Below, piece after piece: positions 4,152-60,971 of a stretch of 64,000 bases of DNA. The notes under the pieces are model-generated. The model saw only the letters and a program-made list of their open reading frames with translations. It was not told the DNA's origin and made no database searches. Source of the DNA: Eledone cirrhosa. Lineage: Eukaryota. Position 1 is the stretch's first letter. Each line of letters opens with the position of its first letter. The stretch is from the NCBI GenBank assembly GCA_964016885.1, contig OZ024740.1:211668001-211732000 (forward strand), written 5' to 3'. The position numbers were made by a program, and so were the translations under genes.

Positions 4152-4192
4152 TATGGTGAACTAACTGTTGTGTAACCACTTCTATATATATA

Positions 4193-4278
4193 TATAATTG
4201 CCTCGTCTGACGAACGAATGAAGTCGTTTATTTCGTATTCGCTTCATTCGGGAAACCTCTGGTAATGAGGTAATTATA
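4193..4278 (+). ncRNA. Type-I hammerhead ribozyme in a short orphan PLE tail (about 4193-4362) between (TA)n tracts
   Basis: Stem I TATAATTGCCTCGT/ATGAGGTAATTATA, CTGACGA (4207-4213), stem II CGAATGAAG/CTTCATTCG, GAAA (4252-4255), stem III ACC-tct-GGT, cleavage triplet GUA (4262-4264). Confidence 0.85.
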
Positions 4279-22164: not shown

Positions 22165-24262
22165 AATTGCATTTATCTTGCTTTATGTTCATACGAGTTA
22201 TCACCAAGTCACAACCAGTGAACTCAAGAGACAACAAGGTCCGCCATGTTCAAGGAAGAACATACATACTCACACATGCATCTTTAGTGTTTAGACTTGT
22301 GATGTACTTATATTGACAGAATCTTCCTTAGTATATGGGCAGTTCCCATTAGTACTATCTTTTGTATTTCTCCTATACGCGGGTTTCCTGGGATCTGCGA
22401 TAAGTAATCATTAGACCCCTTAGGTATCATTCCCAGAGCGCCTACAACCACTGGTATTGTTTTAGTTCTCAATTTCCACATTTTTCCAATTTCTATCTCC
22501 AGAAAGTTTTGTCAACATCAGGATTGTTAGCTCGCTCTGGGTATTTTCCATACAGAGGCTTTTCTTGCCATTTCTTAGCCAGTTTCTGTAGCAGTTCTTT
22601 CTTTGCAGTTACTTTTACCTGCTTTGCTTTTTCTGTGTTTTCCATTTCAGCAGTAAATGGGACTTTTGAAATTTGTAGTCTGTATCTTTGTGCATCTTTT
22701 GTAATGGAATATGATCTTTTGATGCTTTCGTGTTTCAAAACGAGTTTGATCATCCAATCATGTGATTCCCTTAGATATGTAGATAATCCAATTGTTGCAG
22801 TTTTCAACGCAATGTCTAACTGGATTAACCTACGTCCTCCTTCTTTCCTAGGGAGATATATTCTATCTATATCTGCCTTAGGGTGATGCATTCTGTGCAT
22901 GGTTAAGAATTTTCGAATTTTTGTATCGAGCCTACGGATCTCTGTGCTTGACCAGTTGATGACATTGTAACTGTAGGTTACTACTGGTATGGCAAGCGTG
23001 TTTATGGCATCGATCCTATTCCTTGCATTCAATTCCGTTCTTAAGATTGCTCTTACTCTGCGGTCACATTCCTTCCTTATCCTTTCCCTCATTGTCGAGT
23101 GCTTGATTCCGTCTCCTTCATAAACACCTAGATATTTGTAAGTTTTTTCTTGATCAAGTTCTCTTATCACGTTCCCCCGATCAAGATTAATGTCTGAACT
23201 CTTCAGCAGCTTTCCTCTGGTGAACGTTGCTTTGGCGCATTTATCTAGTCCAAACTCCATTTTAATGTCATCACTGAACTGCTCCACAGTGGATAATAGC
23301 CCTTGCAATTGTTCATCATTTTTTGTAAATAGTTTCAGGTCATCCATATAGAACAGGTGATTAATGGTTTTGTCATAGACTTTATATCCATGTTTTGTTT
23401 CATTGAGCATTTTACTTAATGGTATAAGTGCGATGCAGAATAAAAGCGGTGATAAAGAGTCACCCTGAAAAATTCCACAATTAATATTAACTTCTCCAGC
23501 TTCCAGTGATTTTGTTTCACTATTCAAAAGGAGTGTCGTTTTCCATGTCTTCATACTGAATGACAAAAACCTCCTGACAACGGGGGATATTTTGAAAATC
23601 TCTAAACATTTTTCAATCCAACTGTGTGGCAAACTATCGAATGCTTTTTTATAATCTATCCAAGCAATCGATAGATTTTTGTGTCTATTATGACAATCTT
23701 CCAGTATCAGTTTGTTAACCAGAAGCTGATCCTTACAGCCATATGAGCCTCGTTTACACCCTTTCTGCTCAATGGGAAATAGGTCATTTGTTATCAGGTG
23801 GTCATATGTGTATTCAGTTAGGACTGATGTTAAAATTTTATACATTGTGGTCAAGCAAGTTATCGGTCTGTAATTTTTGGGATTGTTTGTCTCATCATTC
23901 TTCGGAAGCAGGAATGTAATGCCGTTAACTAGCCATGATGGTATCTTTTCTGGCTCCTTAACTATTTCATTGTAAAGTTGGGCTAACAGCTCATGAGACT
24001 CTGTGAAGGCATTTATCCAAAAGTTTTGTATTTTGTCTTTTCCTGGGGATTTCCATTTGCTGGTTTTTCTTAGAGCCAAGCGCAACTGTTCAACTGTTAT
24101 ATTTTCCCATGTTTGTTCCTCAAGGTGAGCTGTATCTTTCATTTGTCTGTCTATCCATGGGGCATGTATGTTATGAACTTTTTCTTCGGCCCAGATCTTT
24201 TCCCAGAATTCTTGCACTTCCTCCTTGGGTGGTATTGATTTAGCAGTTATTGTTGACTTACC
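22165..24262 (-). mobile_element. R4/Dong-clade LINE, 5'-truncated, RLE core deleted, flanked by (TAT)n
   Basis: Contains the RT ORF 22493..24217 and C-terminus KMWKLRTKTIPVVVGALGMIPK..QKIVLMGTAHILRKIL*. The CCHC/PD-(D/E)xK region is missing. Confidence 0.88.
22493..24217 (-). CDS. R4/Dong-type reverse transcriptase (574 aa open segment)
   Basis: WKSPGKDKI, YRPITCLTTMYKILT, EQKGC..GCKDQL, AWIDYKKAFDS, GIFQGDSLSPLLF, HLFYMDDLKL, YKYLG. Confidence 0.9.
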   Translation of the reverse strand: MQEFWEKIWAEEKVHNIHAPWIDRQMKDTAHLEEQTWENITVEQLRLALRKTSKWKSPGKDKIQNFWINAFTESHELLAQLYNEIVKEPEKIPSWLVNGITFLLPKNDETNNPKNYRPITCLTTMYKILTSVLTEYTYDHLITNDLFPIEQKGCKRGSYGCKDQLLVNKLILEDCHNRHKNLSIAWIDYKKAFDSLPHSWIEKCLEIFKISPVVRRFLSFSMKTWKTTLLLNSETKSLEAGEVNINCGIFQGDSLSPLLFCIALIPLSKMLNETKHGYKVYDKTINHLFYMDDLKLFTKNDEQLQGLLSTVEQFSDDIKMEFGLDKCAKATFTRGKLLKSSDINLDRGNVIRELDQEKTYKYLGVYEGDGIKHSTMRERIRKECDRRVRAILRTELNARNRIDAINTLAIPVVTYSYNVINWSSTEIRRLDTKIRKFLTMHRMHHPKADIDRIYLPRKEGGRRLIQLDIALKTATIGLSTYLRESHDWMIKLVLKHESIKRSYSITKDAQRYRLQISKVPFTAEMENTEKAKQVKVTAKKELLQKLAKKWQEKPLYGKYPERANNPDVDKTFWR

Positions 24263-24495
24263 AATTATTATTATTATTATTATTATTGGCGACCTACGTA
24301 GTAAATCGTATTATCGTGAGCTCCGCAAAGGTTTGTTATTTCCGTTTGTTAAAAATTGCCATTTATGGAAAATTTTATTGTTAACTGTTTATAAGCACAC
24401 ATACATTGTTTTCCGAAAAGGACACCCAAAAAGATTGGGGCCTTGTGCCCAAAATTTTAACTTTTATTATTATCCAAAAATTTCTTTGAAAAAAA

Positions 24496-26519
24496 ATGGC
24501 TAATTCCCCTCTGCACGAAGCAGCTGAAAGCCTTCCTCACAAAATAACACCTCACACCGACACCACCATTGTAAATGTTACTACGTTTGCCAACACAAAA
24601 AAAAATATAAGCAGTAGCAATATTTTAAATTTGTCTCAGGCAGACATTCATTTCCCGCCATTACCAATGACTGCAGGTGTTAAAGCCTCCACCACCACCA
24701 CCACCGCGACAACCACCACCCCCACCACCACCGCGACAACCACCACCCCCACCACCACCGCGACAACAGAAACAAAAGAAGAAAAAAATAAATTAACTCG
24801 TGATGTCGAAATGAAATTAAGCAAGATGGACTCTTCCGCAGCAAAGACGACTGACGTCACCACCACCACAACTGAAACTAAAATTAAGATTAACACAAAT
24901 AACGATAGCAACAACAACAACAATGACATTATAAAACCGACCCTCAGTTTCGCCATCGTAGCAAAACAATTCGAAGCGTTCACGGTAACTCAAGAGGATT
25001 TAGAAAATGCCAAACAAATGGTAAAGAAAGATGAGTACAGGGTCAGCCTCACCCCCCCCCCACCTAATAAAATGGAGCATCGGCGCCTATGCACCGTGTC
25101 GTATAGAACAATAAATGTAAAATCGCGCTGAGTGGAACGGGCATCCGAGTCCCAAATCCAAAAAGCTTTGGGACATGTGTGGGCAAGAAAAACCCACATC
25201 AGACGTGGGTAAAAGTATGGAACCGTGGATGTGTTCTTTGAAACACCAGAGGAGGCTAGAGAACACTCCATGGCCCCATTAAAAAGTGACGACTTCACAC
25301 TCGTCCCAAGCTATTGTGGCCAGAGACTCGTAAAGATCAGGGTGACCCACGTTCCACCGGCCATCGAAATTCCCTGGCTAATAGCGGCTGTCCTCGCCGG
25401 CATCGAAGCCAACACGAAAATAATAGCAATAGCAAAAGAAAAGCAGGAAAACTGGTCCAGATCTGGGATGGAGCTCCTGATCCAAGCGGACCAAAAAAGC
25501 ATTGAGGAGATCCCAGAGGTAATAGACCTCACTGACGGCAGCCACCTCACGGTAATTGTCGAGGGCAGAAGACCTAGGTGTGTCGTTTGTGGTGAAGGAA
25601 CCCACCTAAGGGCTTTCTGCCCTCAGGCTAAAAGGTTGAGGCCACCTCTCCTACCCACCCCAGTGACACAACCATCAACACCACCAGTAGCAGAGATGGC
25701 AGCAACAACTGTAGCAGCAACAACAGAAGCAACTATAACAGCAACAACCCCAGCAACAGTAGCAAAACCAACACCACTACCACCACCAGCAAAACCAACA
25801 CCACCACCACCCAACGCTTCAGAACTAGCACCAGCGCCTACACCATCCACCACGCCACAACCAAAACTAACGGCTGTGGAGGATTTTCCACTCCCCGGCC
25901 TATCACAACTGGAGACAGATTGTGACGACAAGGAGTGGGAAACGATATCCGGAAAAAAAAAAAGAAACCAAAAAAGAAAAAATTCTCTTCCTTCCCCCTC
26001 CAAAAACAAAATACAGAGGGAAACAAATAAATTAAGAAACAAAAAAGTTAGGACAGATATGCCACCATCCACACCAGCATCACCAACCCCATCAACCCAA
26101 ACACCAACACCATCACCATCATTAACCCCAACACCACCATCACCTACACCACAAAAGTCACCAAAATGCGAAACAGAAACAAACCCACAACAAACGCAAA
26201 CAAAACAAAACAGCCAAAACGATACACACTACACAGCATTAAATTTGAACAACAAGCAATTATTACACTACATCCAACACAACACCAGCATCACAGAAAA
26301 AGACTACACAACAACCCCAAAATTCACACCACCTCCACACATACAAATCACTCGCATCACACAGAAAACGTACATGACACTAACAAAAAATTCCCCAAAG
26401 ACATCGGAGACTTCCAACAAGCACTCTCCAGGAGGATTTATAAGGACATCCTTCTTGAGGAGGCCACAAGCAGTGAAAAGGATGGAAAAACTGTCCTTCC
26501 CCTACGAGAAGTAAGGTAA
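24496..26519 (+). pseudogene. Tx1 ORF1 (gag-like, CVVCGEGTHLRAFC knuckle, Pro/Thr-rich linker)
   Basis: ORFs 24496..25131 and 25225..26514 are in the same frame, broken by TGA (25129) and TAA (25210). Homologous to 18150-19700. Confidence 0.82.
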
Positions 26520-26553
26520 GTGGTCTTTCCCATCTTTTCCACTCCTTTTCAAC

Positions 26554-29500
26554 ATGACCTCACTCAGAATAGGCAGCATAAATGCGCGTGGCTTGGGGTC
26601 GTCATGGAAGCAGGGCCACCTGCTCAACGACCTCAGGTCACTAAACATAGATGTAGTGGCCATCAGCGAGACCAGAATCTCCGAAGCACAGGCTTTCGCA
26701 CCGATCTTCGGCGGCTACGATGTGTACGCATCTCCCAGCCGTCCGGGATCGGGGGGAGGAGTTGCTGTGCTTTTTCGGAGAGGTTTGGATCTTGCCATAC
26801 GGGCCATCTTCCTGGACCCAGAAGGTAAGTTGGTGGTGATGGACGTGACCAGCGGAGACGGGCAAGCTTTCAGGTTAGTGGCCGTCTATGCCTCGACAGG
26901 AGCAGGGTGGCCTGATTTCTTCCGGCGTCTGGAGACCTTTCTTGGAACGTCCCGCTCTTTAGTGTTAGTGGGCGACTGGAACGGGATCTTAGATGCACGC
27001 TGGGATTGTGTGGGATTAGTGGATAGGGAAGGAGGGTGCAAGAGTCTCACCAACCTGCTCAGACGTTTTGAACTGTCTGACAGGTACCGAATGGATTTCC
27101 CGAATGTACCAATGTGGACTTGGACAAATCGCATAGGGTCATCCAGATCATATCTAGATAGAGTATTTTGTAGGGAAATAGATAGGTCCAGCATAGGCTG
27201 TCCACAATTCAAGATAGTCAGCTACACGGACCACAAATTCCTGATCTGTGTGCTTGACTTAGATAGGCTTCATAGACAAGGACCCGGCTACTGGAAGCTA
27301 AACGCGTCCTTACCAGCGCGCAAGGCCTACAGAGACCGGATTAGCGAACTAGTTAAGCGGGCGTTGACGGGGGCCATCGTCAACAACAAGTGGTGGTTTG
27401 CTCTGAAAAGAGCAATTAGAATACAGTCCATTAGGTTTAGTAAGACTTTAGCAATAGAGAAAAATAGAGCAGAGGGAGAATTAGTTAGAAAATTAGATGA
27501 GGCGCTTAGCAAAGGCATCGCGACCGACGTACTTGCGGCGAAATTGGCCCTTAACCAATTCTTCAATGCAGAGCACGAAGGCTGTGTTGTCAGAGCTAGG
27601 GTGCGTGCTCTCAGGCACAAGGGGACAAAAGCCGTTCAATGGGCCCGAGTGGTGGAGGCGCGTCGTGGCAACAAAGCCACGATCCGGTCTTTGGTGGACC
27701 ACGACGGGCGCATGCTACTCGATCCCGGGCAAATGTGTGAAGCTTTTCAGCGACACTTCGCTCAACTGTTCGGGGGCAGTGGCGGGCCGGATCGAGGGAT
27801 GGACTTTAGTGTCTACCTCGACGGACTGCCGCGGCTTTCGGCCACTGAGGCGGACTGTTGCGAAAAGCCGATAACAACCGCTGAAGTACGGGATGCAATG
27901 ACTAGTTGCACAAGGGGTAAATCGCCTGGTTTGGATGGTCTGCCCTATGAACTTTACGTACAAATGCCAAACTTGTTCGGAGGCCTCTTGGCGGACGTCT
28001 ACTGCAACTGGCAACAGAACGGGAGAATTCCCAGCTCTGTGAGCCGAGGAGCGGTGGCGCTGCTGAGAAAGGATCCGAACAAGGGGGATAACATAGATAA
28101 TTTTAGGCCCATAACTCTGCTAAACACAGAGTTCAAGATTTTGGCCAAGGTGCTAGCAAAGAGGTTGGCGCTTGTCGTTGGCGGTCTGGTGGGAGAGGCA
28201 CAGACATGCGCCATTCCCGACAGATCCATCCACGACAACCTCCACCTCATGCGATACATCGTAGAGAGGGTAGCTAGGGAACCTGGCACGGGTGGGTCTT
28301 TGATCAATTTAGATCAGTCGAAAGCCTTCGATAGGGTCGACCATCGTTACCTAGCGGCAGTCCTGAGGGCAGCTGGCTTTGGGCCCGTCTTCAGAGGCTG
28401 GATCGCTGCCATGCACAGCAACATCTGCTCTGTAGTGAAAGTGAACGGTCACCTTTCGGAACCGTTCAACATCATGCGCTCGGTCCGCCAAGGATGTCCC
28501 CTCTCGTCCCTATTGTACGTATTGACTCTCGAGCCATTACTGCACAAACTGGAGACGTTGAGGGGGGTCCCGCGCGAACTAGGATGCGGGAGATCCGTGT
28601 CAGCATATGCCGACGATGTCACCGTAGTGGTGTCGAACGCCAAACACATCGAGGCGATCGGCACTACACTAAAGGAATACGAAGCGGTGACAGGAGCAAT
28701 GATCAACCAGGAAAAGTCAGTGGGCCTGCAGCTCGGCACCTGGAGAGGCAGGTCCATGCCGTCCAACAGCGTCGTCGGGCGCTGGACGGACGGACCGGTT
28801 AAATTGCTAGGGTTCTGGTTCGGTCCGGACCTCCAGACGGACAAAAACTGGGACGAGGTGACGAGCAGGGTGGCTTCTCTCACCCAGAAATGGGCCGAGA
28901 GGAAGCTATCCCTGAAAGGTCGAGCGGAGGTGGCGAATGCGTACATCGCATCCGTCATCTACTACCGCCTGACCGTCGTACCTTGTCCTAAGCCCCGCCT
29001 GACTGCGCTGGAGCGTTTGCTCTTTCGCTTCATGTGGTAAGGATGCGCTCCGATGGTCAGGCGGTCCATCTGCTGTCAACACCCGCTACGTGGAGGCCTG
29101 GGCATGCCATGGCTGATGATGCGCAGACACGCGCTCAGGCTACGACATCTCCACCTCTTCCTCGACGGTGATCAGGTGTGGTCGCCGTTTGCTAGATGCG
29201 TTTTTCCCCAGCTCGTCTCCTTGACGGAGCTGCAGTCCTGGGTCAAGCGAAGACCGAGAGGGAGCGCTTGGAGACTGGAATGTCTTCAGGCGCTCACAGC
29301 CCTCGACCAATCGGGCAATGTGATCGGTGGAAACTCCACCTTGGCGTTCTATAGGGGATTAGTGGAGGGGAAGAGCGACGACGTACTTGGAGAAACTCTA
29401 GGCGTCGACGAAAATCAACTAGCCAATCTCTTCGGAAGGACTTTCGGGCCGGGGCCTATGGACAACTTCCAGAAATCCCTGGCCTGGCAGTGCTACCGAG

Positions 29501-30177
29501 GAGCTTTGCCAGTTCGGGATAAACTCTACAGGCATGGAGGTGCCGTCAGCCGGGCATGTCCGAGATGCGCGCAGGGCGACGAAACCGTCCTGCACGCACT
29601 CGTCCAGTGTCCGAGCATTGCTGACTTGTGGGTTTATGTCGAACACCTGCTGTCACGTGTAGGACGGATCCAGCTATCAGCTGAGTCCATCGTGAGGATT
29701 GCCCCGCCCCCTTCCTTTAGCCGGGAAGGGCAGGCAGTTTTTATCTGTCTGGTGGCCATGGCGAAAGAGATAGTATGGTGGACACGTTTGAAAGGGCTGA
29801 AGACGAGCACTTACCTCTTCGGTGATGCCCTGATTAACTTTTTCAAATTTCATTTGAAAAGGAAAATCAGGGTAGAGAGGGAAGTGCTCTCTTCCCAGCA
29901 TTTTGTTGAAAGATGGGTGAGAGAAGCAAGTATGGCCCGAATGAATGGGCCTTCTCTGAGTATGTGTCTGCAAATTAAAGGTGGAAAACTGGGAGAGGGC
30001 ACTTGCCCTGGTGGTCAGGGCCACTGTGGTCTTTTAATGGGCTTTCTCCACAAATGTCCCTCGGAAGTCTCCCCCCTATTGGGGAATTTTTCTTTGTTAT
30101 TTTATTTCATCCTCTGTTTTTTTTACACGCAGAAATGCCCATTTGTACCGTCCTGTATTGTCCTGTACTGTCCTTAA
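26554..30177 (+). pseudogene. Tx1 ORF2 (APE endonuclease, RT, CCHC) with one premature stop
   Basis: ISETR, GGGVA, VAVYA, GDWN, LDR, TDHK; QGCPLS, AYADD. The TAA at 29038-29040 is Lys (AAG) in sibling copies, and reading continues in frame to CPRCAQGDETVLHALVQC. Confidence 0.92.
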
Positions 30178-39204: not shown

Positions 39205-39310
39205 GGTTTGAAAGATGAAAATGGGAGACTCAGTCAGCTATTAGGGGAGAAAGAATTTGAAATACGACAGCTTCAGAAAGAACTTTTGACACAAAATGAT
39301 ACAGTAAGAT
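39205..39310 (+). CDS. CCDC13: CCDC13 exon (GLKDENGRLSQLLGEKEFEIRQLQKELLTQNDTVR)
   Basis: TTTCTTTGTTCTTAG acceptor and GTAAGT donor at 39311 (phase 1). The DENGRLxxLLxExxFEI motif is characteristic of CCDC13. Confidence 0.88.
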
Positions 39311-44105: not shown

Positions 44106-44245
44106 TACCAGAAATTACAAATGATGCTGCAGCTATGAAAATTGTGGAACTTTCTAAAAACCTGCGTAAAGCAGTGTCATATCTTGAAGTTGAGAAAACA
44201 AAATCCAGAAATTTAACAAAACTGTATGAAGAATTGAAAGAAGAG
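44106..44245 (+). CDS. CCDC13: CCDC13 exon (LPEITNDAAAMKIVELSKNLRKAVSYLEVEKTKSRNLTKLYEELKEE)
   Basis: TTTTTCTTGCAG acceptor, GAG|GTAAC donor, phase 1/0 consistent with the previous exon. Contains the DxxAxKIVELSK motif of CCDC13. Confidence 0.9.
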
Positions 44246-47028: not shown

Positions 47029-47228
47029 NNNNNNNNNNNNNNNNNNNNNNNNNNNNNNNNNNNNNNNNNNNNNNNNNNNNNNNNNNNNNNNNNNNNNNNN
47101 NNNNNNNNNNNNNNNNNNNNNNNNNNNNNNNNNNNNNNNNNNNNNNNNNNNNNNNNNNNNNNNNNNNNNNNNNNNNNNNNNNNNNNNNNNNNNNNNNNNN
47201 NNNNNNNNNNNNNNNNNNNNNNNNNNNN
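47029..47228. other. Assembly gap (200 N)
   Basis: N run. Confidence 1.
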
Positions 47229-47826
<598 letters not shown>

Positions 47827-47888
47827 TGAAATATATGAAATATATGAAATATATGAAATATAAGAATCAAAGAGCTGTTCAAAACATT

Positions 47889-47942
47889 ATTGTGCTTACA
47901 GCTGTTTCCTCCAAACCGAGGTTTGGATTCTTCGGAGCAATT
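47889..47942 (-). ncRNA. Hammerhead ribozyme (inverted copy)
   Basis: Reverse complement of the motif at 55720-55766. Confidence 0.75.
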
Positions 47943-49382
47943 TATTAATGCATGGACAGTTATATGACCTCCTTTTCAGCCGAGAGACATACCAACACAT
48001 ATTCAAACATTGATACATATTCAAACATTGTGGGTCAACATTCATTACAGAATTTAGAGTGGCAGTACACACTTCGAGATTACATTTATATTAATAGGTA
48101 CAATCAAAAATCAAAGATATAGGTTAAAGTACAACATGAAGATAAGTGGTTATATAGTGCAAATGTTATATGTGTGGCACGCATGTGCGTCTTGTTTATA
48201 TAGTGTGGCAGAGAGATATGTGTGGTAGAGGCACTTAGGTAGGTAAATAAGAGTGTTAGGTTGGTAGATCTGGTGGCAAAGTCTTTATATGATTGATATA
48301 GTCTGTGTGTGGAGAAATATTATAAGCATTAAAGATAGTGCAAGCATTAAAAGTGTTATAAGTATTGGAGATGCACAGCGCATGGATGTCAAGTAATTCA
48401 TGTACTTCGGTATTTTCATGGTCAAGGGAGTGTATATTTCGATTATATGCCTTTCACATAATCCACGACAATCTAGTTAGAGATCGTAGTCTGGTGCTCT
48501 TTAGTTCGATACAGGTGGTTGTTACGTTTCGAGAGACGCCATTGAATACCGGAAGTGTGTGTGTGGCTAAGGGGAGTTAATGCATGCGGGGAGGTAACTC
48601 TGGGGTTTCTATATCTAGCCATTAAAATGTGTCTCAATATAGACCCTAAATTCTATGGTGAGGTGCACCTTCCAAGAGAGACTTTTAAAGCATAAAGTGT
48701 ACTAACTATAGAGTAGTTTAACTAAATTATGCTGAAGGTGATCATATTATTATTAGGGTGGATTAACCCATCTTAAGGTGCTACAAATGGAAATTATAGA
48801 TGATGAGCGAGGATTCTAAATTAATGATCTCTATGGTTGTAGTCTGCTCATATGACCAGGCGCGGTGATTGCAGGATTGCTTCAGGACCCAATGATCTCT
48901 GGTAAGATCTGGGTCATCGCTTGCTACATTGGATGTCGAAAGATAATCGTCCCCAGGCAGGCCAAAGGTCAAGCCGCAGTCCTCGCGACCCCTCTCTGAC
49001 CGTCAGATCATCCATATACGTACAACCCGCACGGCAGTTGCATTGCATTCACTCACTGCGCTCAGCGGCCTGGTCCTACTGGTCAACAGCGCTACTCGAT
49101 TAAATCATTTTACATCTGTCTAAGGAAGGTGTTTCCTCTGCCCAACACCATCCAACCGATCAATTCATGCTCAAATTACCCTTAGAGCGGCGTAGTGCCG
49201 TCCAGGTGGGTGGATGTTGTCACACCTGCCGTAGAGGTATAAATGGGTATTTTCCCTGCGAAGGGTTCCAGTGGGATGTCGTTGTTTGTGTTATAATGGA
49301 TCAGCTAGTGTTGGGTATGTAGTATAGGGTGTGTCTCTGGTGTTTGATGCTAGATGTGGTGTTAGGTTCCAGTCCGACATTG

Positions 49383-51008
49383 CTATATATGGGGCTTAAA
49401 GTTTTGGAAGGAATGTCTGAGGCGGTGCTGGCAAGTTGCAAACACCTCAGATTTTTTGTTAAGTAGGTTACGGTTGGAGAAGATAATATTGTGTGTCTCT
49501 AGTATACAGAGGTTACAGAATTTATTAGGTGGTTTGTACGAGGTCGCGCTGCCTATCACTTCCCATTTGAGTGTGTATGGTTTATTTTTAGATTTTAGAT
49601 AGTGAATGTAGCTAGAAAGTGAGGTGGAGTTGGCTAGGCTGTGCTTTTTGAACGAGTGGATGTGCGAGTTATATCTAATTTTGAAGCAGTTAGAAGTGGA
49701 GCCTACATAGGTTTCTGAAGAGTTATTAGTCGTGACTGTGCATGAGTATATGACATCCTTGGTTAGGCATTTTTTATCTAAAGGGCAGGTTCTATTAGCT
49801 CTACAGTTACAATTATTCTGTGCGTTAGTCCGCTGGTTATAATGCAATGCGGAAGTCTGTGTGGTGGGTATAGGATTTTGGGTGTTCAGGTTGACAACCC
49901 TGGTGTTATTACTTATACTAGTGTTATTTCTATTGTTACTGCCGTTGCTATTGTTGCTTGCTACAGTGGTATTTAGAGGGTTTGCATCCCGTTGCGATTT
50001 TGTTTGTTGGAAGTAAGAACTAATTTTACTATTATTGCTGCTAGCTATGTGGTATGCTAAGTTAGGCGTCGTGGAGTATGAGATTTTAATGGTGTTTTTG
50101 TTTAAGAGGTTGTGGTACTTGTGTCCTAGAGGGAAGTTTTTATCTAGTAGTGAGAAGAAAGCCCTAGGTATGTTGGTGGAGACATTTAGGTTGAAAGGAG
50201 GGTTGAAAAATGTATTATTTCTTCTTCTATTTTTGCTTTTAGTGTTTGGTGTGTTGCTTCCTCCTAAGGCCTCACAGTAGTTTCCATGGTAATGGTTACT
50301 TCCGGTGGCACCCTCCGCTTTGGTGTACTTGTGGTTGCTATTCCTATTATTAGATTTCCTCATGGACATGTTGTGCGAGATGATGTTGTAGCTATGTGTT
50401 TTCTTAGGTAGGAACTCAATTTCTATATTATGGCCGGAGCTAGCTAATGCTTGATTGTAATATTGTGAGTTTTTGCTAAATATGTTTGCGTCATAGGACA
50501 GACTAGAGATTCTATTGGACACCCCCTTAGAGATAGAGTTTAATATTGATCTAGGGTGATTAGACTTGGTATCTACGTAAATAAGTTTCTCATTAGGCTT
50601 ATGGAAGGGTGTATATATTTTTGAGTCTAGGTATAGTGTGGCGTCTAGGAAGTTAACATTTTTAGTGTTTTTGTCCATGGTGATACTAAGGTTAAAGTTT
50701 TTGAATGTCTTATGCAGTTGTTTTCTAGTTCTTTCTATATTAAATTTTTTATATTCTATGAGTAGAAGTGCATCATCGCGGTACAAACCACCGTTGAGGT
50801 AAGGGAGGTCTTTATGGATTTCATTGAGGAGGTATAGGCCGACCAAATCAGTGACCTGCGCCGAGTCACTAGATCCCATGGTTATGTCGAAGTTGTTGTG
50901 CGTATCCTTGCGTGTCCATAGTTGGTCCTCGAAGGTGATTATGGTTTTACGGGCCGCAAGGATGACATCAACCTGGGCTCTAGTCAGGTCGCTATTGGTC
51001 ATGGCCAT
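49383..51008 (-). CDS. Inverted, 5'-truncated copy of the PLE RT/GIY-YIG ORF
   Basis: 541 aa identical to the C-terminal part of 52315..54276. Confidence 0.9.
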   Translation of the reverse strand: MAMTNSDLTRAQVDVILAARKTIITFEDQLWTRKDTHNNFDITMGSSDSAQVTDLVGLYLLNEIHKDLPYLNGGLYRDDALLLIEYKKFNIERTRKQLHKTFKNFNLSITMDKNTKNVNFLDATLYLDSKIYTPFHKPNEKLIYVDTKSNHPRSILNSISKGVSNRISSLSYDANIFSKNSQYYNQALASSGHNIEIEFLPKKTHSYNIISHNMSMRKSNNRNSNHKYTKAEGATGSNHYHGNYCEALGGSNTPNTKSKNRRRNNTFFNPPFNLNVSTNIPRAFFSLLDKNFPLGHKYHNLLNKNTIKISYSTTPNLAYHIASSNNSKISSYFQQTKSQRDANPLNTTVASNNSNGSNNRNNTSISNNTRVVNLNTQNPIPTTQTSALHYNQRTNAQNNCNCRANRTCPLDKKCLTKDVIYSCTVTTNNSSETYVGSTSNCFKIRYNSHIHSFKKHSLANSTSLSSYIHYLKSKNKPYTLKWEVIGSATSYKPPNKFCNLCILETHNIIFSNRNLLNKKSEVFATCQHRLRHSFQNFKPHI

Positions 51009-51518
51009 GATAAGTGCCTTATTTAATAGGATAGGGGAAATAGAGGTGTAGTATGAATTGATATCAAATTGAATAAATTTTTTGTTCTTATTATTCTTAT
51101 AACACTTTTAATGCTTGCACTATCTTTAATGCTTATAATATTTCTCCACACACAGACTATATCAATCATATAAAGACTTTGCCACCAGATCTACCAACCT
51201 AACACTCTTATTTACCTACCTAAGTGCCTCTACCACACATATCTCTCTGCCACACTATATAAACAAGACGCACATGCGTGCCACACATATAACATTTGCA
51301 CTATATAACCACTTATCTTCATGTTGTACTTTAACCTATATCTTTGATTTTTGATTGTACCTATTAATATAAATGTAATCTCGAAGTGTGTACTGCCACT
51401 CTAAATTCTGTAATGAATGTTGACCCACAATGTTTGAATATGTATCAATGTTTGAATATGTGTTGGTATGTCTCTCGGCTGAAAAGGAGGTCATATAACT
51501 GTCCATGCATTAATAAAT

Positions 51519-51565
51519 TGCTCCGAAGAATCCAAACCTCGGTTTGGAGGAAACAGCTGTAAGCA
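51519..51565 (+). ncRNA. Minimal type-I hammerhead, variant core CCGAAGA (5' pLTR)
   Basis: TGCT-CCGAAGA(51523-51529)-a TCCAAAC ctcg GTTTGGA g-GAAA(51550-51553)-palindromic ACAGCTGT-GUA(51559-51561)-AGCA. Confidence 0.78.
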
Positions 51566-51814
51566 CAATAATGTTTTGAACAGCTCTTTGATTCTTATAT
51601 TTCATATAACTGCTCTGTAAATCATCTGATGTTTTTACATTGAGCTACTTAACTTACTGGTAATAAGGTAGTAATACATTACTGCCTACCACTATTTAGG
51701 GTGTGTGTAAAATACTTACAACTGCTTAAGGTTTTGTGTTTACATAACCATAAATAGTATAACTAATACTATTAACTGCTCCATATCGTTGAGCTGACAT
51801 ATAATATTGCCAAT

Positions 51815-54276
51815 ATGCTAATCAAAGACCAACTCCCCATGTCAACCAAGAACATACCAATACCATCCAGGAATACATATGAGAAATTGCTGATCAACAG
51901 TGTAAATTCATTTATCAATAGAGTGAGATGGAGGACATTCCATTATGATAGAAACAAATCTAACAACTTGAATAATACTAACAATTTTGACTCCTTCGGC
52001 TTTAAAACCTTTAAAAGCCCCCCTCATAACACTCTACTTAACTCCTTTGAAAATGACCTAGTTAAACTAGTTAAGAACATTAAATACAATAAGCACCATA
52101 TTAGAAGCAACACCTTCTTAAACAAACTTAACACTTCTATTAGTGGATTCAAAACTAGTAATAAAATTATTGTACACGCAGATAAAACTAATAACATATA
52201 CAGCCTAGATTATATTACTTATAGAAAGTTTATATATAATGAACTACATAAAAGCTACAAAAAAACCACCTTGAAAAACTTATTAAAGATATTAATGTAG
52301 AGGGTTATAATATAGTGTCTAAACTAGGACTACAGAGGCATACACAACCTTTCACTCCGAACCCCCCTAGATTCTCTCTGAAGGACCATAAGGAGAACTT
52401 CATCAGCAACCCCACGATAAGACTTATCTGCCCTTCCAAGTCCGACATTGGTATTATCAGCAAGAAGATTTTGGATAAAATCATCCCACAAATTAAACAC
52501 AAGATACACCTTAAACAATGGGGAAATACGGGTGAAGTAATTGAATGGTTTAAGGATATCAAGAATAATAAGAACAAAAAATTTATTCAATTTGATATCA
52601 ATTCATACTACACCTCTATTTCCCCTATCCTATTAAATAAGGCACTTATCATGGCCATGACCAATAGCGACCTGACTAGAGCCCAGGTTGATGTCATCCT
52701 TGCGGCCCGTAAAACCATAATCACCTTCGAGGACCAACTATGGACACGCAAGGATACGCACAACAACTTCGACATAACCATGGGATCTAGTGACTCGGCG
52801 CAGGTCACTGATTTGGTCGGCCTATACCTCCTCAATGAAATCCATAAAGACCTCCCTTACCTCAACGGTGGTTTGTACCGCGATGATGCACTTCTACTCA
52901 TAGAATATAAAAAATTTAATATAGAAAGAACTAGAAAACAACTGCATAAGACATTCAAAAACTTTAACCTTAGTATCACCATGGACAAAAACACTAAAAA
53001 TGTTAACTTCCTAGACGCCACACTATACCTAGACTCAAAAATATATACACCCTTCCATAAGCCTAATGAGAAACTTATTTACGTAGATACCAAGTCTAAT
53101 CACCCTAGATCAATATTAAACTCTATCTCTAAGGGGGTGTCCAATAGAATCTCTAGTCTGTCCTATGACGCAAACATATTTAGCAAAAACTCACAATATT
53201 ACAATCAAGCATTAGCTAGCTCCGGCCATAATATAGAAATTGAGTTCCTACCTAAGAAAACACATAGCTACAACATCATCTCGCACAACATGTCCATGAG
53301 GAAATCTAATAATAGGAATAGCAACCACAAGTACACCAAAGCGGAGGGTGCCACCGGAAGTAACCATTACCATGGAAACTACTGTGAGGCCTTAGGAGGA
53401 AGCAACACACCAAACACTAAAAGCAAAAATAGAAGAAGAAATAATACATTTTTCAACCCTCCTTTCAACCTAAATGTCTCCACCAACATACCTAGGGCTT
53501 TCTTCTCACTACTAGATAAAAACTTCCCTCTAGGACACAAGTACCACAACCTCTTAAACAAAAACACCATTAAAATCTCATACTCCACGACGCCTAACTT
53601 AGCATACCACATAGCTAGCAGCAATAATAGTAAAATTAGTTCTTACTTCCAACAAACAAAATCGCAACGGGATGCAAACCCTCTAAATACCACTGTAGCA
53701 AGCAACAATAGCAACGGCAGTAACAATAGAAATAACACTAGTATAAGTAATAACACCAGGGTTGTCAACCTGAACACCCAAAATCCTATACCCACCACAC
53801 AGACTTCCGCATTGCATTATAACCAGCGGACTAACGCACAGAATAATTGTAACTGTAGAGCTAATAGAACCTGCCCTTTAGATAAAAAATGCCTAACCAA
53901 GGATGTCATATACTCATGCACAGTCACGACTAATAACTCTTCAGAAACCTATGTAGGCTCCACTTCTAACTGCTTCAAAATTAGATATAACTCGCACATC
54001 CACTCGTTCAAAAAGCACAGCCTAGCCAACTCCACCTCACTTTCTAGCTACATTCACTATCTAAAATCTAAAAATAAACCATACACACTCAAATGGGAAG
54101 TGATAGGCAGCGCGACCTCGTACAAACCACCTAATAAATTCTGTAACCTCTGTATACTAGAGACACACAATATTATCTTCTCCAACCGTAACCTACTTAA
54201 CAAAAAATCTGAGGTGTTTGCAACTTGCCAGCACCGCCTCAGACATTCCTTCCAAAACTTTAAGCCCCATATATAG
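51815..54276 (+). CDS. PLE polyprotein (about 820 aa): RT + GIY-YIG endonuclease, one -1 frameshift near 52259-52265
   Basis: STKNIPIPS, FGFK, ADKTNNIY, LKDHKENF, FIQFDI, MGSSD, GLYRDD, NFLD, SNHP, FNPPFN, CNCR..CPL..C, VIY..YVGST..FKIRYNSH, CNLC..E, LLNKKSE..C.H. Confidence 0.93.
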
Positions 54277-55719
54277 CAATGTCGGACTGGAACCTAACAC
54301 CACATCTAGCATCAAACACCAGAGACACACCCTATACTACATACCCAACACTAGCTGATCCATTATAACACAAACAACGACATCCCACTGGAACCCTTCG
54401 CAGGGAAAATACCCATTTATACCTCTACGGCAGGTGTGACAACATCCACCCACCTGGACGGCACTACGCCGCTCTAAGGGTAATTTGAGCATGAATTGAT
54501 CGGTTGGATGGTGTTGGGCAGAGGAAACACCTTCCTTAGACAGATGTAAAATGATTTAATCGAGTAGCGCTGTTGACCAGTAGGACCAGGCCGCTGAGCG
54601 CAGTGAGTGAATGCAATGCAACTGCCGTGCGGGTTGTACGTATATGGATGATCTGACGGTCAGAGAGGGGTCGCGAGGACTGCGGCTTGACCTTTGGCCT
54701 GCCTGGGGACGATTATCTTTCGACATCCAATGTAGCAAGCGATGACCCAGATCTTACCAGAGATCATTGGGTCCTGAAGCAATCCTGCAATCACCGCGCC
54801 TGGTCATATGAGCAGACTACAACCATAGAGATCATTAATTTAGAATCCTCGCTCATCATCTATAATTTCCATTTGTAGCACCTTAAGATGGGTTAATCCA
54901 CCCTAATAATAATATGATCACCTTCAGCATAATTTAGTTAAACTACTCTATAGTTAGTACACTTTATGCTTTAAAAGTCTCTCTTGGAAGGTGCACCTCA
55001 CCATAGAATTTAGGGTCTATATTGAGACACATTTTAATGGCTAGATATAGAAACCCCAGAGTTACCTCCCCGCATGCATTAACTCCCCTTAGCCACACAC
55101 ACACTTCCGGTATTCAATGGCGTCTCTCGAAACGTAACAACCACCTGTATCGAACTAAAGAGCACCAGACTACGATCTCTAACTAGATTGTCGTGGATTA
55201 TGTGAAAGGCATATAATCGAAATATACACTCCCTTGACCATGAAAATACCGAAGTACATGAATTACTTGACATCCATGCGCTGTGCATCTCCAATACTTA
55301 TAACACTTTTAATGCTTGCACTATCTTTAATGCTTATAATATTTCTCCACACACAGACTATATCAATCATATAAAGACTTTGCCACCAGATCTACCAACC
55401 TAACACTCTTATTTACCTACCTAAGTGCCTCTACCACACATATCTCTCTGCCACACTATATAAACAAGACGCACATGCGTGCCACACATATAACATTTGC
55501 ACTATATAACCACTTATCTTCATGTTGTACTTTAACCTATATCTTTGATTTTTGATTGTACCTATTAATATAAATGTAATCTCGAAGTGTGTACTGCCAC
55601 TCTAAATTCTGTAATGAATGTTGACCCACAATGTTTGAATATGTATCAATGTTTGAATATGTGTTGGTATGTCTCTCGGCTGAAAAGGAGGTCATATAAC
55701 TGTCCATGCATTAATAAAT

Positions 55720-55766
55720 TGCTCCGAAGAATCCAAACCTCGGTTTGGAGGAAACAGCTGTAAGCA
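55720..55766 (+). ncRNA. Minimal type-I hammerhead (3' pLTR)
   Basis: Identical to 51519-51565. GUA at 55760-55762. Confidence 0.78.
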
Positions 55767-56395
55767 CAATAATGTTTTGAACAGCTCTTTGATTCTTATA
55801 TTTCATATATTTCATATATTTCATATATTTCATATATTTCATATAACTGCTCTGTAAATCATCTGATGTTTTTACATTGAGCTACTTAACTTACTGGTAA
55901 TAAGGTAGTAATACATTACTGCCTACCACTATTTAGGGTGTGTGTAAAATACTTACAACTGCTTAAGGTTTTGTGTTTACATAACCATAAATAGTATAAC
56001 TAATACTATATATATGTATATATATATATATATATGTATAGAGCCTAACGGGTGTCATATATAATAATAGGACCACGCCAGGTCCTGCGGGAGGAATTAC
56101 ATTTACAAAGAACATTGATTTGGTGGTCTGATTCTTCTTATAGAATGTTCAGATATGACACCCCTTAATAGAAGGTAATCATCCTGATATATACACCTTA
56201 GTACTTCTTAATAGACAACACTGTAACCTATAAATAAGTAACATAATCTAGAAATTAGTTATAACATCATATGATAGGCACTTATTTGAAACACCATTAA
56301 TGTAATTTAGGATAATAAATTTAACTAAGAAAACCAGACATGGTCGCATTCTTTAAGGGTATGTCAATATTTTTTTATAAAACTGCTCTATATTA

Positions 56396-56460: not shown

Positions 56461-56564
56461 AATATGGTTTTATGAATATAGTTTCCATTTGTTAATATAT
56501 TATATATATATATCAAGAAAGAAGAGTGACATGGTTTGCTATACAAAAAAGGCTTTTAATCACT

Positions 56565-56675
56565 TTTCTGACAATTGTTTCTCTGAACTGGTAGGTCTAG
56601 AGATCACTACCCGCCTGTTTTCGCGTCAATCGTTCACCAATACATAGTTGTAACCAGTCAATTCATCAGACCTAG
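56565..56675 (-). ncRNA. Hammerhead copy with degenerate stem I
   Basis: Reverse complement has CTGATGA..GAAA CAATT GTC, but stem I (AGGT/AGAA) no longer pairs. Confidence 0.5.
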
Positions 56676-59335
56676 CGAGAATGAAGGGAATACACAGGCA
56701 TGGCCTCTATATATAGTAGTGGTAGCATTCAATCAGAACAATAACAACAATACTAACAGTGCTAGCAATAAATTATTTGAAATAATCACATCAATCTAAG
56801 TGAGACATATAGTATACTTAAGACTTTAGCATGTAAAATGAGTTGATATGAGGCAGATGTATGAAATTGACATGTAAAAGCTGTCATGGGGTGTATTATA
56901 TATAGTGTGGATATAAGCCGGGGCTTTAAACAATGTACCATTTCCTTTACCGTAGGTTTGGTGACCATAAGAATTATTTATTATCTGACAGATAAAATAT
57001 TTATCATTGTAGTGAGGATAGTAATTTTTGTGGTGTGAAGTGGATTCAATATTTATGTGGTCTATATTAGATGAAGGGATTGTTAGTTCGAATCATGGGG
57101 TTGTTTAGCTTTCACATCATCAATAACATACATGTAAAAGATAACATTAACAGAGTAGCAATATAATAGGTAAGTTAATACAAAGGTTAAGGAGGCAATA
57201 TATATAGAGAGAGAAAACATGCTGACTACAATTATAACAACAGGAGGAAGGTTATGTTTTACTGTGGTAGTATTCTGATAATGTACTTGGATTTAGGTTC
57301 ATCTGTTGAGAATCAAGGGTGAGGAAGTTGTGTTGACAGCAGCTGAGAAGAGATATATTTATGGGTTGATAAGATATTTGCAGACATTACTGTGGTATAG
57401 AATTAAGAAGGCTAGAATTTGCTTAATGAGTATTTTAGTTCTGTGGTGGTCCGTGTAATAGCATGGATTTCATATGTTGAATGCTAAGTTATGTTGGTTC
57501 GATTCACAGTGGCTTAAATCTTGTGAATTTAGTGACGTTCCTGTGTCTGCAGAAAATTGATCTTTCTATCTTGTTGTTGAGTAGCCTTTTTTAATTCCTA
57601 AGGATATACAGTAATTCAAGATCACAGAGCCTACAATAGGACATGCCGGTACTGTATGCCCTTGCGGCCGACAACCTCGACCAGTTGATATTGTAGTTGG
57701 TGCTATTGTCCTTAAGTTCCCAGATTTTTTTGGCGAGAGTTGTAGAACCTATAAGTGCACGGTTCTTCATCGAGTGTCTGTGCATATACCATCTTTTTTT
57801 TAATAAAATTAACCGCGGTGGATCCAATGTAATACCAAGTGGAGTTGCCCGAGTTCACCGTACACATGTACACTAGGCTTGAATCAAGGCATCTGTTCGC
57901 CAATGGGCACCTATCCGGTAGGTGACAGTTGTAGTTTGAGGTGTTATTCCGTGCAGCTTCCACACTGCTGTTTTGCACACTGCTATAAGTGGGTTGTGAT
58001 TTGTGCCCATTGAGGTTTTGCTGCTGCGTGCTTGTATGCTTTTGCGGTTGTGATACTGTGATGTGTTTATGTTTAGAATTTTGTGCTATGTTGCGCATAG
58101 GTGGAGCGGTTTCCCTAGAGGTATTTCTGTGGTTGATCTTGCGTATGTGTGATTCTATATTTGCAGCCGTAGAGTATGAGCGTTTTATAGTTTTTCTATT
58201 GAGGATTTTATGATATCTGTGTGATATAGGGGAGTGTTTATCTATTAGTTCAAAGAACGTAGAAGGCAACAAAATCTGGGAACTTAAGGACAATAGCACC
58301 AACTACAATATCAACTGGTCGAGGTTGTCGGCTGCAAGGGCATACAGTACCGGCATGTCCTATTGTAGGCTCTGTGATCTTGAATTACTGTATATCCTTA
58401 GGAATTAAAAAAGGCTACTCTACAACAAGATAGAAAGATCAATTTTCTGCAGACACAAGATCGCCACAAAATTCACAAGATTTAAGCCACCGTGAATCGA
58501 ACCAACATAACTTAGCATTCAACATATGATATCCACACTATAACACGGACCACTACAGAACTAAAATACTCATTTAGCAAATTCTAGCCTTCTTAATTCT
58601 ATACCACAGTAATGTCTGCAAACATCTTATCAACCCATAAATATATCTCTTCTCAGCTGCTGTCAACACAAATTCCTCACCCTTGATTCTCAACAGATGA
58701 ACCTAAATCCAAGTACATTATCAGAATACTACCACAGTAAAACATCACCTTCCTCCTGTTGTTATAATTGTAGTCAGCTTGTTTTCTCTCTATATATATA
58801 TATATATTTCCTCCTTAACCTCTGTATTAACTTACCTATTATATTGCTACTCTGTTAATGTTATCTTATACATGTATGTTATTGATGATATGAAAGCTAA
58901 ACAACTCCATGATTCGAATTAACAATCCCTTCATCAAATATAGACCACATAAATATTGAATCCACTTCACACCACAAAAATTACTATCCTCACTACAATG
59001 ATAAATATTTTATCTGTCAGATAATAAATAATTCTTATGGTCACCAAACCTATGGTAAAGGAAATGGTACATTGTTTAAAGCCCCGGCTTATATCCACAC
59101 TATATATAATACACCCCACGACAGCTTTTACATGTCAATTTCATACATCTCCCTCATATCAACTCATTTTACATGCTAAAGTCTTAAGTATACTATATGT
59201 CTCACTTAGATTGATGTTGTGATTATTTCAAATAATTTATTGCTAGCACTGTTAGTATTGTTGTTATTGTTCTGATTGAATGCCACCACTACTATATATA
59301 GAGGCCATGCCTGTGTATTCCCTTCATTCTCGCTA

Positions 59336-59441
59336 GCTCTGATGAATTGACTGGTTACAACTATGTATTGGTGATCGATTGACGCGAAAACAGGCGGGTA
59401 GTGATCTCTAGACCTACCAGTTCAGAGAAACAATTGTCAGC
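59336..59441 (+). ncRNA. Hammerhead with ~80-nt expanded stem II
   Basis: GCT-CTGATGA(59339-59345)-TGACTGGT..ACCAGTTCA-GAAA(59427-59430)-palindromic ACAATTGT-GUC(59436-59438)-AGC. Confidence 0.72.
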
Positions 59442-59659
59442 AATGTGATTTAAAACCTTTTTTGTATAGCAATCCGTGTCACTCTTCTTTCTTGATTTAT
59501 CATTACTCCAAATGTAAACAACATATAAATCAACGCGTACTCACAGCATCACTATGGTAACGCCTTGTTGAGTCGAACTTAGCCAAGCATTGATACAATC
59601 CACTACTCGGAGTACCCTAACTGGACTACACCTAAGTGGACTACCTATAACAATAATCT

Positions 59660-60320
59660 GTTATCCTGTATATAGCGACAGCTCGTAGTATAGGGGAACA
59701 GATAAATGAACCTGGCAAGACCTTCAAGATAGTAAAGAATCATCTGTACTCTACCAACATGCTAAAATAGAACATAAGGGTAAATTAGAGAACATAGAAA
59801 TAAAAATAGAATCTACACACAGAAAAGATGCAATGTTTAGACAAATCACAGAGGCAATAAACATAAATAAACTCCAACCAAAATTAAATAGAAAACATGA
59901 ATGCAACAGCAACATCACAACTTACAATTAAGGACAAAATGAAAACACACACGCACATAGAACAAACAACCAACCAGTAACATGTAAATAAACAAATAAA
60001 TAAACGAATATAAACACACACAGACACCCGGATGTAACACATGCGCAAACTAAGCACACAACACACACACAAAAACAAAATGGCGTAGGACAGAACAAAG
60101 GAGCGGCACAAAAACAAAGAAAAGAATCCCCAATCACTGAAGAGGTCACAGAATGTGTGACGAAAGAACTTTGACAATATATAAAAAATCATCTGGTTGT
60201 GAAACCAAGCAACCGACCGAAATTTATAAATTCCTAAATTTATAAATTTATTATAATAAATTGAAGTGAAAGCAACTGGTGCGTGTGTTTCTTATTGGCA
60301 ACATGACCCTCCCAAATTAT

Positions 60321-60324
<4 letters not shown>
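59660..60324 (+). mobile_element. 3' remnant of a different PLE lineage (GIY-YIG C-terminus + 3'UTR)
   Basis: ..SSVLYQHAKIEHKGKLENIEIKIESTHRKDAMFRQITEAININKLQPKLNRKHEC (RQIxEA..I..P.LN.K.E motif). Confidence 0.7.
60134..60174 (+). ncRNA. Variant hammerhead (extra nt after A9, 2-bp stem III)
   Basis: TCA-CTGAAGA-g-GTCACA gaatg TGTGAC-GAAA-GAAC-TT-TGA. Confidence 0.62.
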
Positions 60325-60350
<26 letters not shown>

Positions 60351-60355
<5 letters not shown>

Positions 60356-60466
60356 AACAAGTAAGACCCCGACGGCTGAGCTCAAGCCGTTTCGACGACT
60401 AATTCTGGACCCAATTAGCTGTCGAAACGGCTTGAGCTCAGCCGTCGGGGTCTTACTTGTTCCTAT
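60351..60466. repeat. Perfect 46-bp inverted repeat (24-nt spacer) carrying the 3' half of a hammerhead, in a ~190-bp insert within (TA)n
   Basis: 60351-60396 is the reverse complement of 60421-60466. The right arm has GAAA CGGCT tgagctc AGCCG TC. Confidence 0.92.
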
Positions 60467-60670
60467 TACCCACTCTACTACCCTAAGTAATGAGTACTTT
60501 GGTGCGTTACCACATTTGGTTCCTTACCACATTTCCTTCGTTATATATATATATATATATATATATCCACCACTAACATTTGGTCTTATTTCACTATATA
60601 TACCTAACACTAACATTTGAAGCTTTGTATTCAAAATTAACATCGTTATGTATTCTGCTCTAATATTTAG

Positions 60671-60784
60671 CATGAAGATGAACTGAAACTACTGGAAGTA
60701 AAATGGAAACAAATGGAAAGTAAGATGACCGAGTGGAAAAATCAGTGTCAAGTTTTGAAGCAAGAACTGAAATTGGCTAACAAA
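60671..60784 (+). CDS. CCDC13: CCDC13 exon (HEDELKLLEVKWKQMESKMTEWKNQCQVLKQELKLANK)
   Basis: TTTAG acceptor, GTGAGT donor, 114 nt, phase 0/0. Matches the KMxxxxNQxQxxKQELxxAxK motif of CCDC13. Confidence 0.88.
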
Positions 60785-60927
60785 GTGAGTTATAAATAGC
60801 AGTTTTGACTTGTTAACTTCATAATTCAATATAGTAGATAATACTGTTATTATTATAGATCCATGCACAGAAATGCATGTACAAAAGAGACAACCTCCCC
60901 CAAAACGCTATAGAAACACAGTGATAA

Positions 60928-60971
60928 TCACTGAAGATGTCACAGGAAAATATGTGACGAAAGTACTTTGA
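60928..60971 (+). ncRNA. Variant hammerhead in a PLE tail (about 60820-61106) related to 60120-60322
   Basis: TCA-CTGAAGA-t-GTCACA ggaaaata TGTGAC-GAAA-GTAC-TT-TGA. Palindromic AAAGTACTTT. Stem II is conserved with 60134 while the loop differs. Confidence 0.68.

Follow-up and report, generated by a model that had tools for sequence, protein, structure and literature searches.

How two oppositely oriented copies of one retroelement come to lie head to head in a single target, and from what template they were copied, is the question raised by a locus of Eledone cirrhosa. The stretch analysed here, referred to as the window, comprises 64,000 nucleotides (nt) of contig OZ024740.1 (assembly GCA_964016885.1, positions 211,668,001 to 211,732,000, forward strand) and carries a Penelope-like element (PLE) which, judged by its sequence motifs, almost certainly belongs to the Hydra clade; it encodes a reverse transcriptase (RT) with a C-terminal GIY-YIG endonuclease, and its pseudo-long terminal repeats (pLTRs) each contain a hammerhead ribozyme motif. 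The PLE RT is the sister group of telomerase. Its sequence marks the element as a new family within a known clade, with about 1,000 near-identical copies, and these insertions give a strict and countable rule: one arm per start site, and one template. The explanation proposed, to which a probability of roughly 0.55 is assigned, is that both ends of the cut target primed one element RNA, probably a circle, at two fixed sites.

The family is young, as the preliminary description of the locus had held from the sequence alone. A 33-nt ribozyme string has 2,038 exact matches in the assembly, and mean pairwise divergence among the top 20 copies is 0.55%. The first 100 of these matches fall into 66 loci, which extrapolates to about 1,300 loci, and genome-wide counts give 998 ends at the start site termed B and about 1,100 at the start site termed A (754 plain and 391 with reiterated sequence); exact junctions of pLTR to open reading frame (ORF) number 132. 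A frame of 831-832 amino acids (aa) is open in 18 of the top 20 copies, the remaining two being a 5′-truncated frame of 780 aa (L020) and the split frame of the window copy. The 16 intact ORFs compared differ by 18 synonymous variants (498 sites) and 25 non-synonymous ones (1,935 sites), a ratio of about 0.36. A second, collinear and gap-free copy of the host region is found 420-475 kb downstream (G000:C1:212.09-212.27 Mb; L165-L168, L175-L188), 98-99.7% identical in long aligned blocks, and here the microsatellite runs directly into the right flank with no element. This copy represents the second haplotype or else arose by recent duplication, and the insertion is either younger than the split of both copies or was lost from one of them. 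Element sequence about 98-99% alike (compared over window positions 51096-55296) is also present in four public runs with four organism labels from three studies, a near-identity that would reflect either close kinship or horizontal transfer.

The ends of the arms were examined in all 66 loci (the unbiased set) and in 14 long ones. Arms end at two places, 46 nt (site A) and 210 nt (site B) after the predicted ribozyme cut, and every one of the 54 typed head-to-head junctions (59 examined; 40 typed in the unbiased set) joins one A arm to one B arm, an outcome with a chance of about 2^-54 if ends were chosen independently. The untyped junctions comprise a degraded arm (L035), two three-piece insertions (L036, L087) and two incomplete sequences, of which L046 was later typed A/B as L128 and L063 lacks the end of its left arm. 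Among 20 hand-picked stretches a further 12 of 12 distinct two-armed insertions are A/B; L114, L119, L127 and two same-flank facing A ends in L115 were not counted as two-armed, and L117, a duplicated insertion, was counted once. Some apparently single copies carry the opposite end in miniature: among 23 such copies, six clear and one weak mini-arm of 9-24 nt are of the opposite type and none is of the same type, the other 16 either abutting TA directly (7) or having unrelated flanks (9). All 25 opposite-strand ribozyme clusters among the 66 loci are oriented tail-out. That one of two inverted pLTRs bears a tail was known qualitatively (PMC3846280, PMC8557442), and two RT starts that define the tail have been shown in vitro (PMC11167929). 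Inverted arms are the normal layout for PLEs, and priming from both target ends at two sites is highly probable.

An unrelated neighbouring family follows the same rule: among 30 loci, most of them selected on their long end, all eight opposite arms seen have the short end. Its window representative (56508-59674), a second and older Hydra-like PLE 500 nt from the element described here, is likewise arranged head to head, with arms 96-97% alike, CTGATGA motifs at 56669 (minus strand) and 59339 (plus strand), and a short end (59500) and a long end (59674) that are 174 nt apart.

The start sites are also the places where the RT probably stutters. Site A, TATATTTCATATA, holds about one and a half copies of a 9-mer, with TATA at either end. 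Extra units, between one and four per end (20 of 9 nt and 6 of 7 nt; 4 unparsed), occur at 12 of the 48 A ends in the unbiased set, as against none of 42 long arms and none of 10 internal copies of the site. At site B, repeats of 7 or 10 nt occur on three ends. It is only at start sites that short repeats are copied again. Slippage at initiation has a precedent among long interspersed nuclear elements (LINEs), where it has been likened to telomerase (PMC1636434).

Both arms of an insertion appear to descend from the same template. Divergence is 0.23% between arms and 0.30% between tandem units, compared with 2.1% between loci. Concordance at shared minor alleles is seen in 228 of 239 comparisons of arms and in 57 of 67 of tandem units, compared with 10% between loci. 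In 8 of 54 insertions the stops of the two arms lie no more than 12 nt apart (permutation mean 0.96; 5 of 40 versus 0.66 in the unbiased set), and arm lengths are correlated (Spearman 0.35, p 0.009). From these alleles and arm ends it seems reasonably probable that a single RNA molecule served both arms. An ADAR-edited template was considered and rejected, private A>G changes numbering 76 and T>C changes 91.

The template was evidently copied across the predicted ribozyme cut. Genome-wide exact string counts (2,177; 2,064; 2,036) fall by 0.68% per nt across the cut and 0.87% just downstream, and they show no pile-up of ends or scars at the cut, so that a cut linear RNA was not the template. 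Where an arm passes through the pLTR twice, both passes share minor or private alleles, with 13 concordant and 4 discordant after the cut and 9 of each in the preceding 155 nt. The longest arm (L111) reaches 8,522 nt, more than two units. At one locus (L113; G000:C2:284698594-284700758) an ORF-less unit of 507 nt, with the ribozyme and both start sites, was copied about 2.5 times in the A arm and 1.7 times in the B arm; its three complete cut-to-cut units are identical, forming a non-coding tandem array with type I hammerhead motifs, and the four occurrences of its junction in the assembly are letter-identical and all at L113. A circular template would explain the crossing, the tandems and L113 most simply, and a covalent RNA circle is given somewhat better than even odds, though precise end-to-end jumps or a lost tandem donor could also give these patterns. 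The circular unit RNA put forward in the preliminary description accordingly finds indirect backing in a family-level DNA pattern; as an idea it had already been proposed for PLEs in 2014 (PMC4209133). The 5′ ends of arms cluster at about 51408-51416, 150 nt before the cut (8 of 118 at 4047-4054) and near the 5′ edge of the 507-nt unit, which marks a possible transcription start or RT pause.

The steps envisaged are as follows. The GIY-YIG domain would cut both strands of a TA microsatellite, as suggested by the work on a reconstituted PLE (PMC11167929), and each DNA end would prime at one start site with the help of TATA pairing. The primer may then slip, so that the start template is copied again, as in telomerase and some LINE RTs. 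The template would be a ribozyme-cut and re-ligated circle, since arms cross the ribozyme site without excess ends and yield near-identical tandem units. Finally, the two nascent cDNAs would pair over a few bases and each serve as template for the other, in which case a separate second-strand primer is not needed. Whether PLEs generally integrate by double priming on one RNA circle, with RT stutter, two or more turns and annealing of first strands, is a more tentative proposition, rated somewhat below even odds. If it is true, pLTRs, inverted arms and the tail on one side all follow from a single rule, and L113 would represent a retrozyme at the moment of its origin.

Several observations weigh against this explanation and lend themselves to other accounts. 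The hammerhead core of the family, CCGAAGA, carries a U4C variant that is reported to reduce in vitro activity substantially (PMC3088659). In the minimum-energy fold (z -1.65) the cut site lies within a competing hairpin, and conservation is barely higher at ribozyme positions than at the other pLTR positions (0.69% versus 1.07%). In the reconstituted PLE, Poseidon PAc of Anolis, hammerhead mutants still inserted normally in vitro, cleavage being dispensable; the main substrate was uncleaved RNA, no RNA-seq reads ended at the cut, the target had no homology to the start sites, and start sites did not differ between the two strands (PMC11167929). Extra bases rather than microhomology are held by 19 of 59 junctions, the others overlapping by 1-5 nt (35) or more (2) or not at all (3). 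Fourteen of the 391 expanded site-A strings, the window copy included, continue into the tail, which priming at A alone does not explain; these may be stalls of a B-primed RT at the A-primed duplex. All nine unbiased arms that pass the cut twice stop within 930 nt, which fits a linear template too, and the L113 junction lies off the ribozyme cut, so that a circle requires a lost donor or ribozyme-independent joining. Shared alleles disagree in 11 of the 239 comparisons between arms and in 10 of the 67 between tandem units; gene conversion may also have contributed to the identity of the arms, and at the DNA level a single RNA and a pair of RNAs from the same source locus look alike.

The PAc mutants, the U4C core and the short second-pass arms, together with 5′ ends near a possible transcription start, are what would be seen if a linear, uncleaved RNA were primed at A and B, with tandems arising by jumps into the homologous pLTR and the ribozyme dispensable. 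This account is possible but on the unlikely side, as the alleles shared by pLTR passes on both sides of the cut are not expected from separate inheritance of two pLTRs, and neither the four letter-identical mini-unit junctions nor an arm longer than two units sits well with it. An asymmetric protein dimer holding two RNAs of the same source locus, one starting at A and the other at B, would accommodate the few discordant arm pairs; the PLE protein is predicted to be dimeric (PMC11167929), and the palindromic stem III allows two ribozymes to co-fold (-35.1 versus 2 x -11.7 kcal/mol), a dimer being the form expected for PLE ribozymes (PMC4209133). We regard such a dimer as rather unlikely, given that the coincident 5′ ends and correlated arm lengths fit one shared template and that both L113 arms carry a junction unique to that locus in the assembly. 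Fold-back self-priming at a palindrome has been put forward as the source of the inverted arm in the Penelope elements of rotifers (PMC3846280), and hairpins do hold some junctions, as at L098, where the hairpin is ribozyme stem II. Fold-back is excluded, however, for 20 of the 54 insertions, since each arm there has sequence that the other lacks, and the fixed, differing outer ends are left unexplained; as a general origin of inverted arms it is improbable, though it may account for some of the eight coincident junctions. Priming of one RNA, probably a circle, from both target ends is the reading retained here.

The window insertion is an instance of this layout (Table 1). Its inverted arm of 3.3 kb and the CTT joint were correctly recognized in the preliminary description, the arm being an exact reverse complement over the 3,272 bases compared, and so were the two identical hammerhead motifs with predicted cuts 4,201 nt apart (4,199 nt in the intact sibling used as reference) and the position of both ends within TA/TATG microsatellite, where a target-site duplication is unreadable. 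A repeat covers the right junction (55999-56046), and the flank on that side is itself repeated. The two pLTRs agree in sequence, save that the 3′ pLTR holds four extra 9-mers (TATTTCATA).

Table 1. Coordinates of the element, its target and the host exons, in window positions.
Feature	Position	Strand	Remarks
Further upstream host coiled-coil exon	39205-39303	+	
Upstream host coiled-coil exon (CCDC13-like)	44106-44245	+	AG/GT boundaries
Gap of 200 N	47029-47228		About 600 nt from the outer end of the inverted arm, with the microsatellite between them
Host TA/TATG microsatellite, left target side	47229-47825		95% match to the microsatellite of the empty second copy
Inverted arm; outer end is start site A, 46 nt past the ribozyme cut	47825-51098	-	0 mismatches to 52561-55834; four 9-mer units at the outer end
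Ribozyme copy of the inverted arm	47892-47940	-	
CTT microhomology, head-to-head joint of both arms	51096-51098		
5′ pLTR, second pass of the long arm	51096-51772	+	
Minimal type I hammerhead motif, core CCGAAGA (U4C), palindromic stem III	51518-51566	+	Predicted cut after 51561
Start site A, about 1.5 copies of the 9-mer	51596-51608	+	Internal, unexpanded copy
Start site B, 210 nt past the cut	51758-51772	+	Internal copy continuing into the ORF
ORF: RT, CxCx5C linker, C-terminal GIY-YIG (Hydra clade)	51815-54276	+	Broken at 52283-52285; in-frame ATGs at 51815 and 51839
Long 3′ untranslated region	54277-55296	+	1,486 nt from stop codon to second cut
3′ pLTR	55297-56009	+	164-nt tail ending at start site B
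Ribozyme motif of the 3′ pLTR	55719-55767	+	Predicted cut after 55762
Five 9-mer units within the 3′ pLTR	55797-55845	+	
Host TA microsatellite, right target side	56009-56041		
Downstream host exon	60671-60784	+	

The inverted arm is, on the sequence, real with near certainty. An assembly artefact might be suspected next to a gap that stands in place of about 55 kb of the second host-region copy, in a region present twice on the scaffold and with an arm that is 100% identical; it is nonetheless very improbable, in that all the opposite-strand ribozyme clusters of the 66 loci are tail-out with arms of varying length, the arm ends at A and the unit at B with four and five 9-mers, and older arms elsewhere have diverged. 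The ORF, taken at the outset to be whole, is split into frames of 174 and 674 aa by a 2-nt insertion and one substitution at 52283-52285. None of the 19 other top copies has this frameshift, and it is absent from contigs of the three public runs that cover the position; it may be a real mutation or an assembly error. Programmed frameshifting was rejected, as other copies are open across the position.

The insertion is intronic, lying between plus-strand spliced exons with its main unit in sense orientation. Of the proposed placement in CCDC13 on the same strand, the strand and the setting stand, three spliced coiled-coil exons flanking the element; the gene name is tentative and comes from a motif match, with a weak match of one exon to the Atlas cluster 'CCD13' (score 0.96; recognition score 2039, below the tool's mark of 2300). 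A resemblance of short interspersed elements (SINEs) would point to an octopod host. A host read-through transcript would reach the antisense arm first. Because this arm is read first and is complementary to both ribozymes and to 3,202 of 4,201 unit bases, formation of a 3.3-kb duplex would be more likely than release of a unit RNA. That the window copy is nevertheless an active source, its 4,201-nt unit being released from host pre-mRNA, would agree with the sense orientation, two intact ribozyme motifs and only two substitutions in 3.3 kb relative to a C4 sibling, and a frameshift due to assembly error would not count against it. With a frameshift seen in no other top copy or covering public run, an antisense arm able to pair with both ribozymes, and no other copy in the allele table that has the 2-nt insertion of the window copy, this is hardly probable. 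On the sequence evidence the family looks active and the window copy, previously thought probably active, does not; it is an ordinary locus and, because of the frameshift, probably a dead end. The same host gene also harbours a nearly complete Tx1/L1-like LINE (24490-30177), with a gag-like ORF and an endonuclease-RT frame containing an in-frame stop, and an RT-encoding LINE fragment (22493-24310).

The clade assignment can be read from the protein of an intact sibling, P0001. The Hydra clade is defined by a C-terminal GIY-YIG domain, RWK, DKT, CxCx5C and CxxC/CxH motifs, hammerheads and (TA)n targets (PMC8557442). In P0001 the order is RWR, DKT, FDI, MGS, YRDD, CxCx5C, VIYS..YVG, CNLC and CQH: RWR is at 51 (RWK or RWR in relatives), DKT at 136 with DKA and DKG both absent, YRDD at 367, the linker CxCx5C, conserved across the alignment, at 691, the GIY-YIG halves VIYS and YVG at 710 and 725, CNLC at 789 and CQH at 817. 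A CCHH motif is lacking, a single unconserved cysteine standing between the GIY-YIG halves, and the targets are (TA)n. Among 7,999 candidates 816 relatives share this build; relatives carry the Pfam domains GIY-YIG and RVT_1, and one of 25 aligned relatives matches GIY-YIG. A Pfam search of P0001 itself gave no match, a PDB sequence search using the alignment gave none, and Rfam at its gathering threshold gave none in the window, the hammerhead being read by hand. It is a noncanonical variant, with U4C in 142 of 143 passes and predicted cleavage; the same substitution leaves a viroid infectious (PMC3088659). The earlier assignment to Naiad PLEs was rejected, since the N-terminal endonuclease with CxC link and the DKA motif of that group are not found and every Hydra feature tested is present; the ribozyme has a full hammerhead fold with a variant core, and some Naiads are reported to have core-only motifs. 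An asparagine-rich linker (53260-53850) makes the ORF about 110 aa longer than in most relatives, and asparagine-rich inserts have likewise been reported in rotifer Penelope elements. Elsewhere in the window, a Hydra-like remnant (2759-4207) has CxCx5C and GIY-YIG frames on the minus strand (2926-3883) and hammerhead-like strings at 2759 (minus strand) and 4117 (plus strand), and related CTGAAGA...GAAA strings at 60137 and 60931 are possible ribozyme remnants of a further element (59675-60950).

Among known systems the closest are the Hydra-clade PLEs (Craig et al. 2021, PMC8557442), including Hydra-1_Obim, which share the C-terminal GIY-YIG without CCHH, RW[K/R], DKT, CxCx5C, CxxC and CxH, (TA)n targets, a hammerhead with short palindromic stem III, partial tandems, inverted 5′ copies and a tail at one end. 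In the families listed there, units measure 1.1-3.0 kb, tails 30-40 nt and all cores read CUGA, whereas here the unit is 4,199 nt, the tail 164 nt and the core U4C; the ribozyme also differs from that of Hydra-1_Obim, and the burst is very recent. Naiads resemble the element in (TA)n targets, tandem and inverted structures and a size of about 4 kb, yet differ, as described, in the N-terminal endonuclease, DKA, a fingers insertion and the lack of a canonical hammerhead, and those of cephalopods are reported as old remnants. PAc (Frangieh et al. 2024, PMC11167929) has two internal RT starts that define a tail, cutting and extension of both strands, and AT-rich targets in common with the present family, but here the starts are TA-rich, match the target and are each used once per insertion; inverted insertions, circles and slippage are not taken up in the main text of that paper. 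Repeated copying of a short repeat-ended template at the start is shared with the eel LINE UnaL2 (PMC1636434) and with telomerase repeat addition, though in this case there are two internal sites, a microsatellite primer and at most four extra units, on a quarter of A ends.

The one-each end rule, the shared arm template and start-site reiteration in PLEs were not found in a literature search that covered subscription papers and supplementary figures little, where they may be in print. None of the literature examined, as far as it was available, connects the genomic structures with either the circle model (2014) or the two start sites (2024). The family also offers intact Hydra-clade ORFs and, as a substrate, a naturally occurring mini-unit of 507 nt. 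In L1 twin priming both target ends prime on one RNA and the products meet at a microhomology joint; L1 pieces are inverted and non-overlapping, whereas the arms described here start near the 3′ end and overlap by up to 4 kb. Non-LTR retrozymes, which are thought to derive from PLE pLTRs, consist of tandem units with a type I hammerhead (PMC7229834; bioRxiv 10.64898/2026.07.22.740005), a description that the 507-nt unit of L113 fits; the main element, in contrast, is autonomous, and L113 is a single locus with its units head to head between A and B ends.

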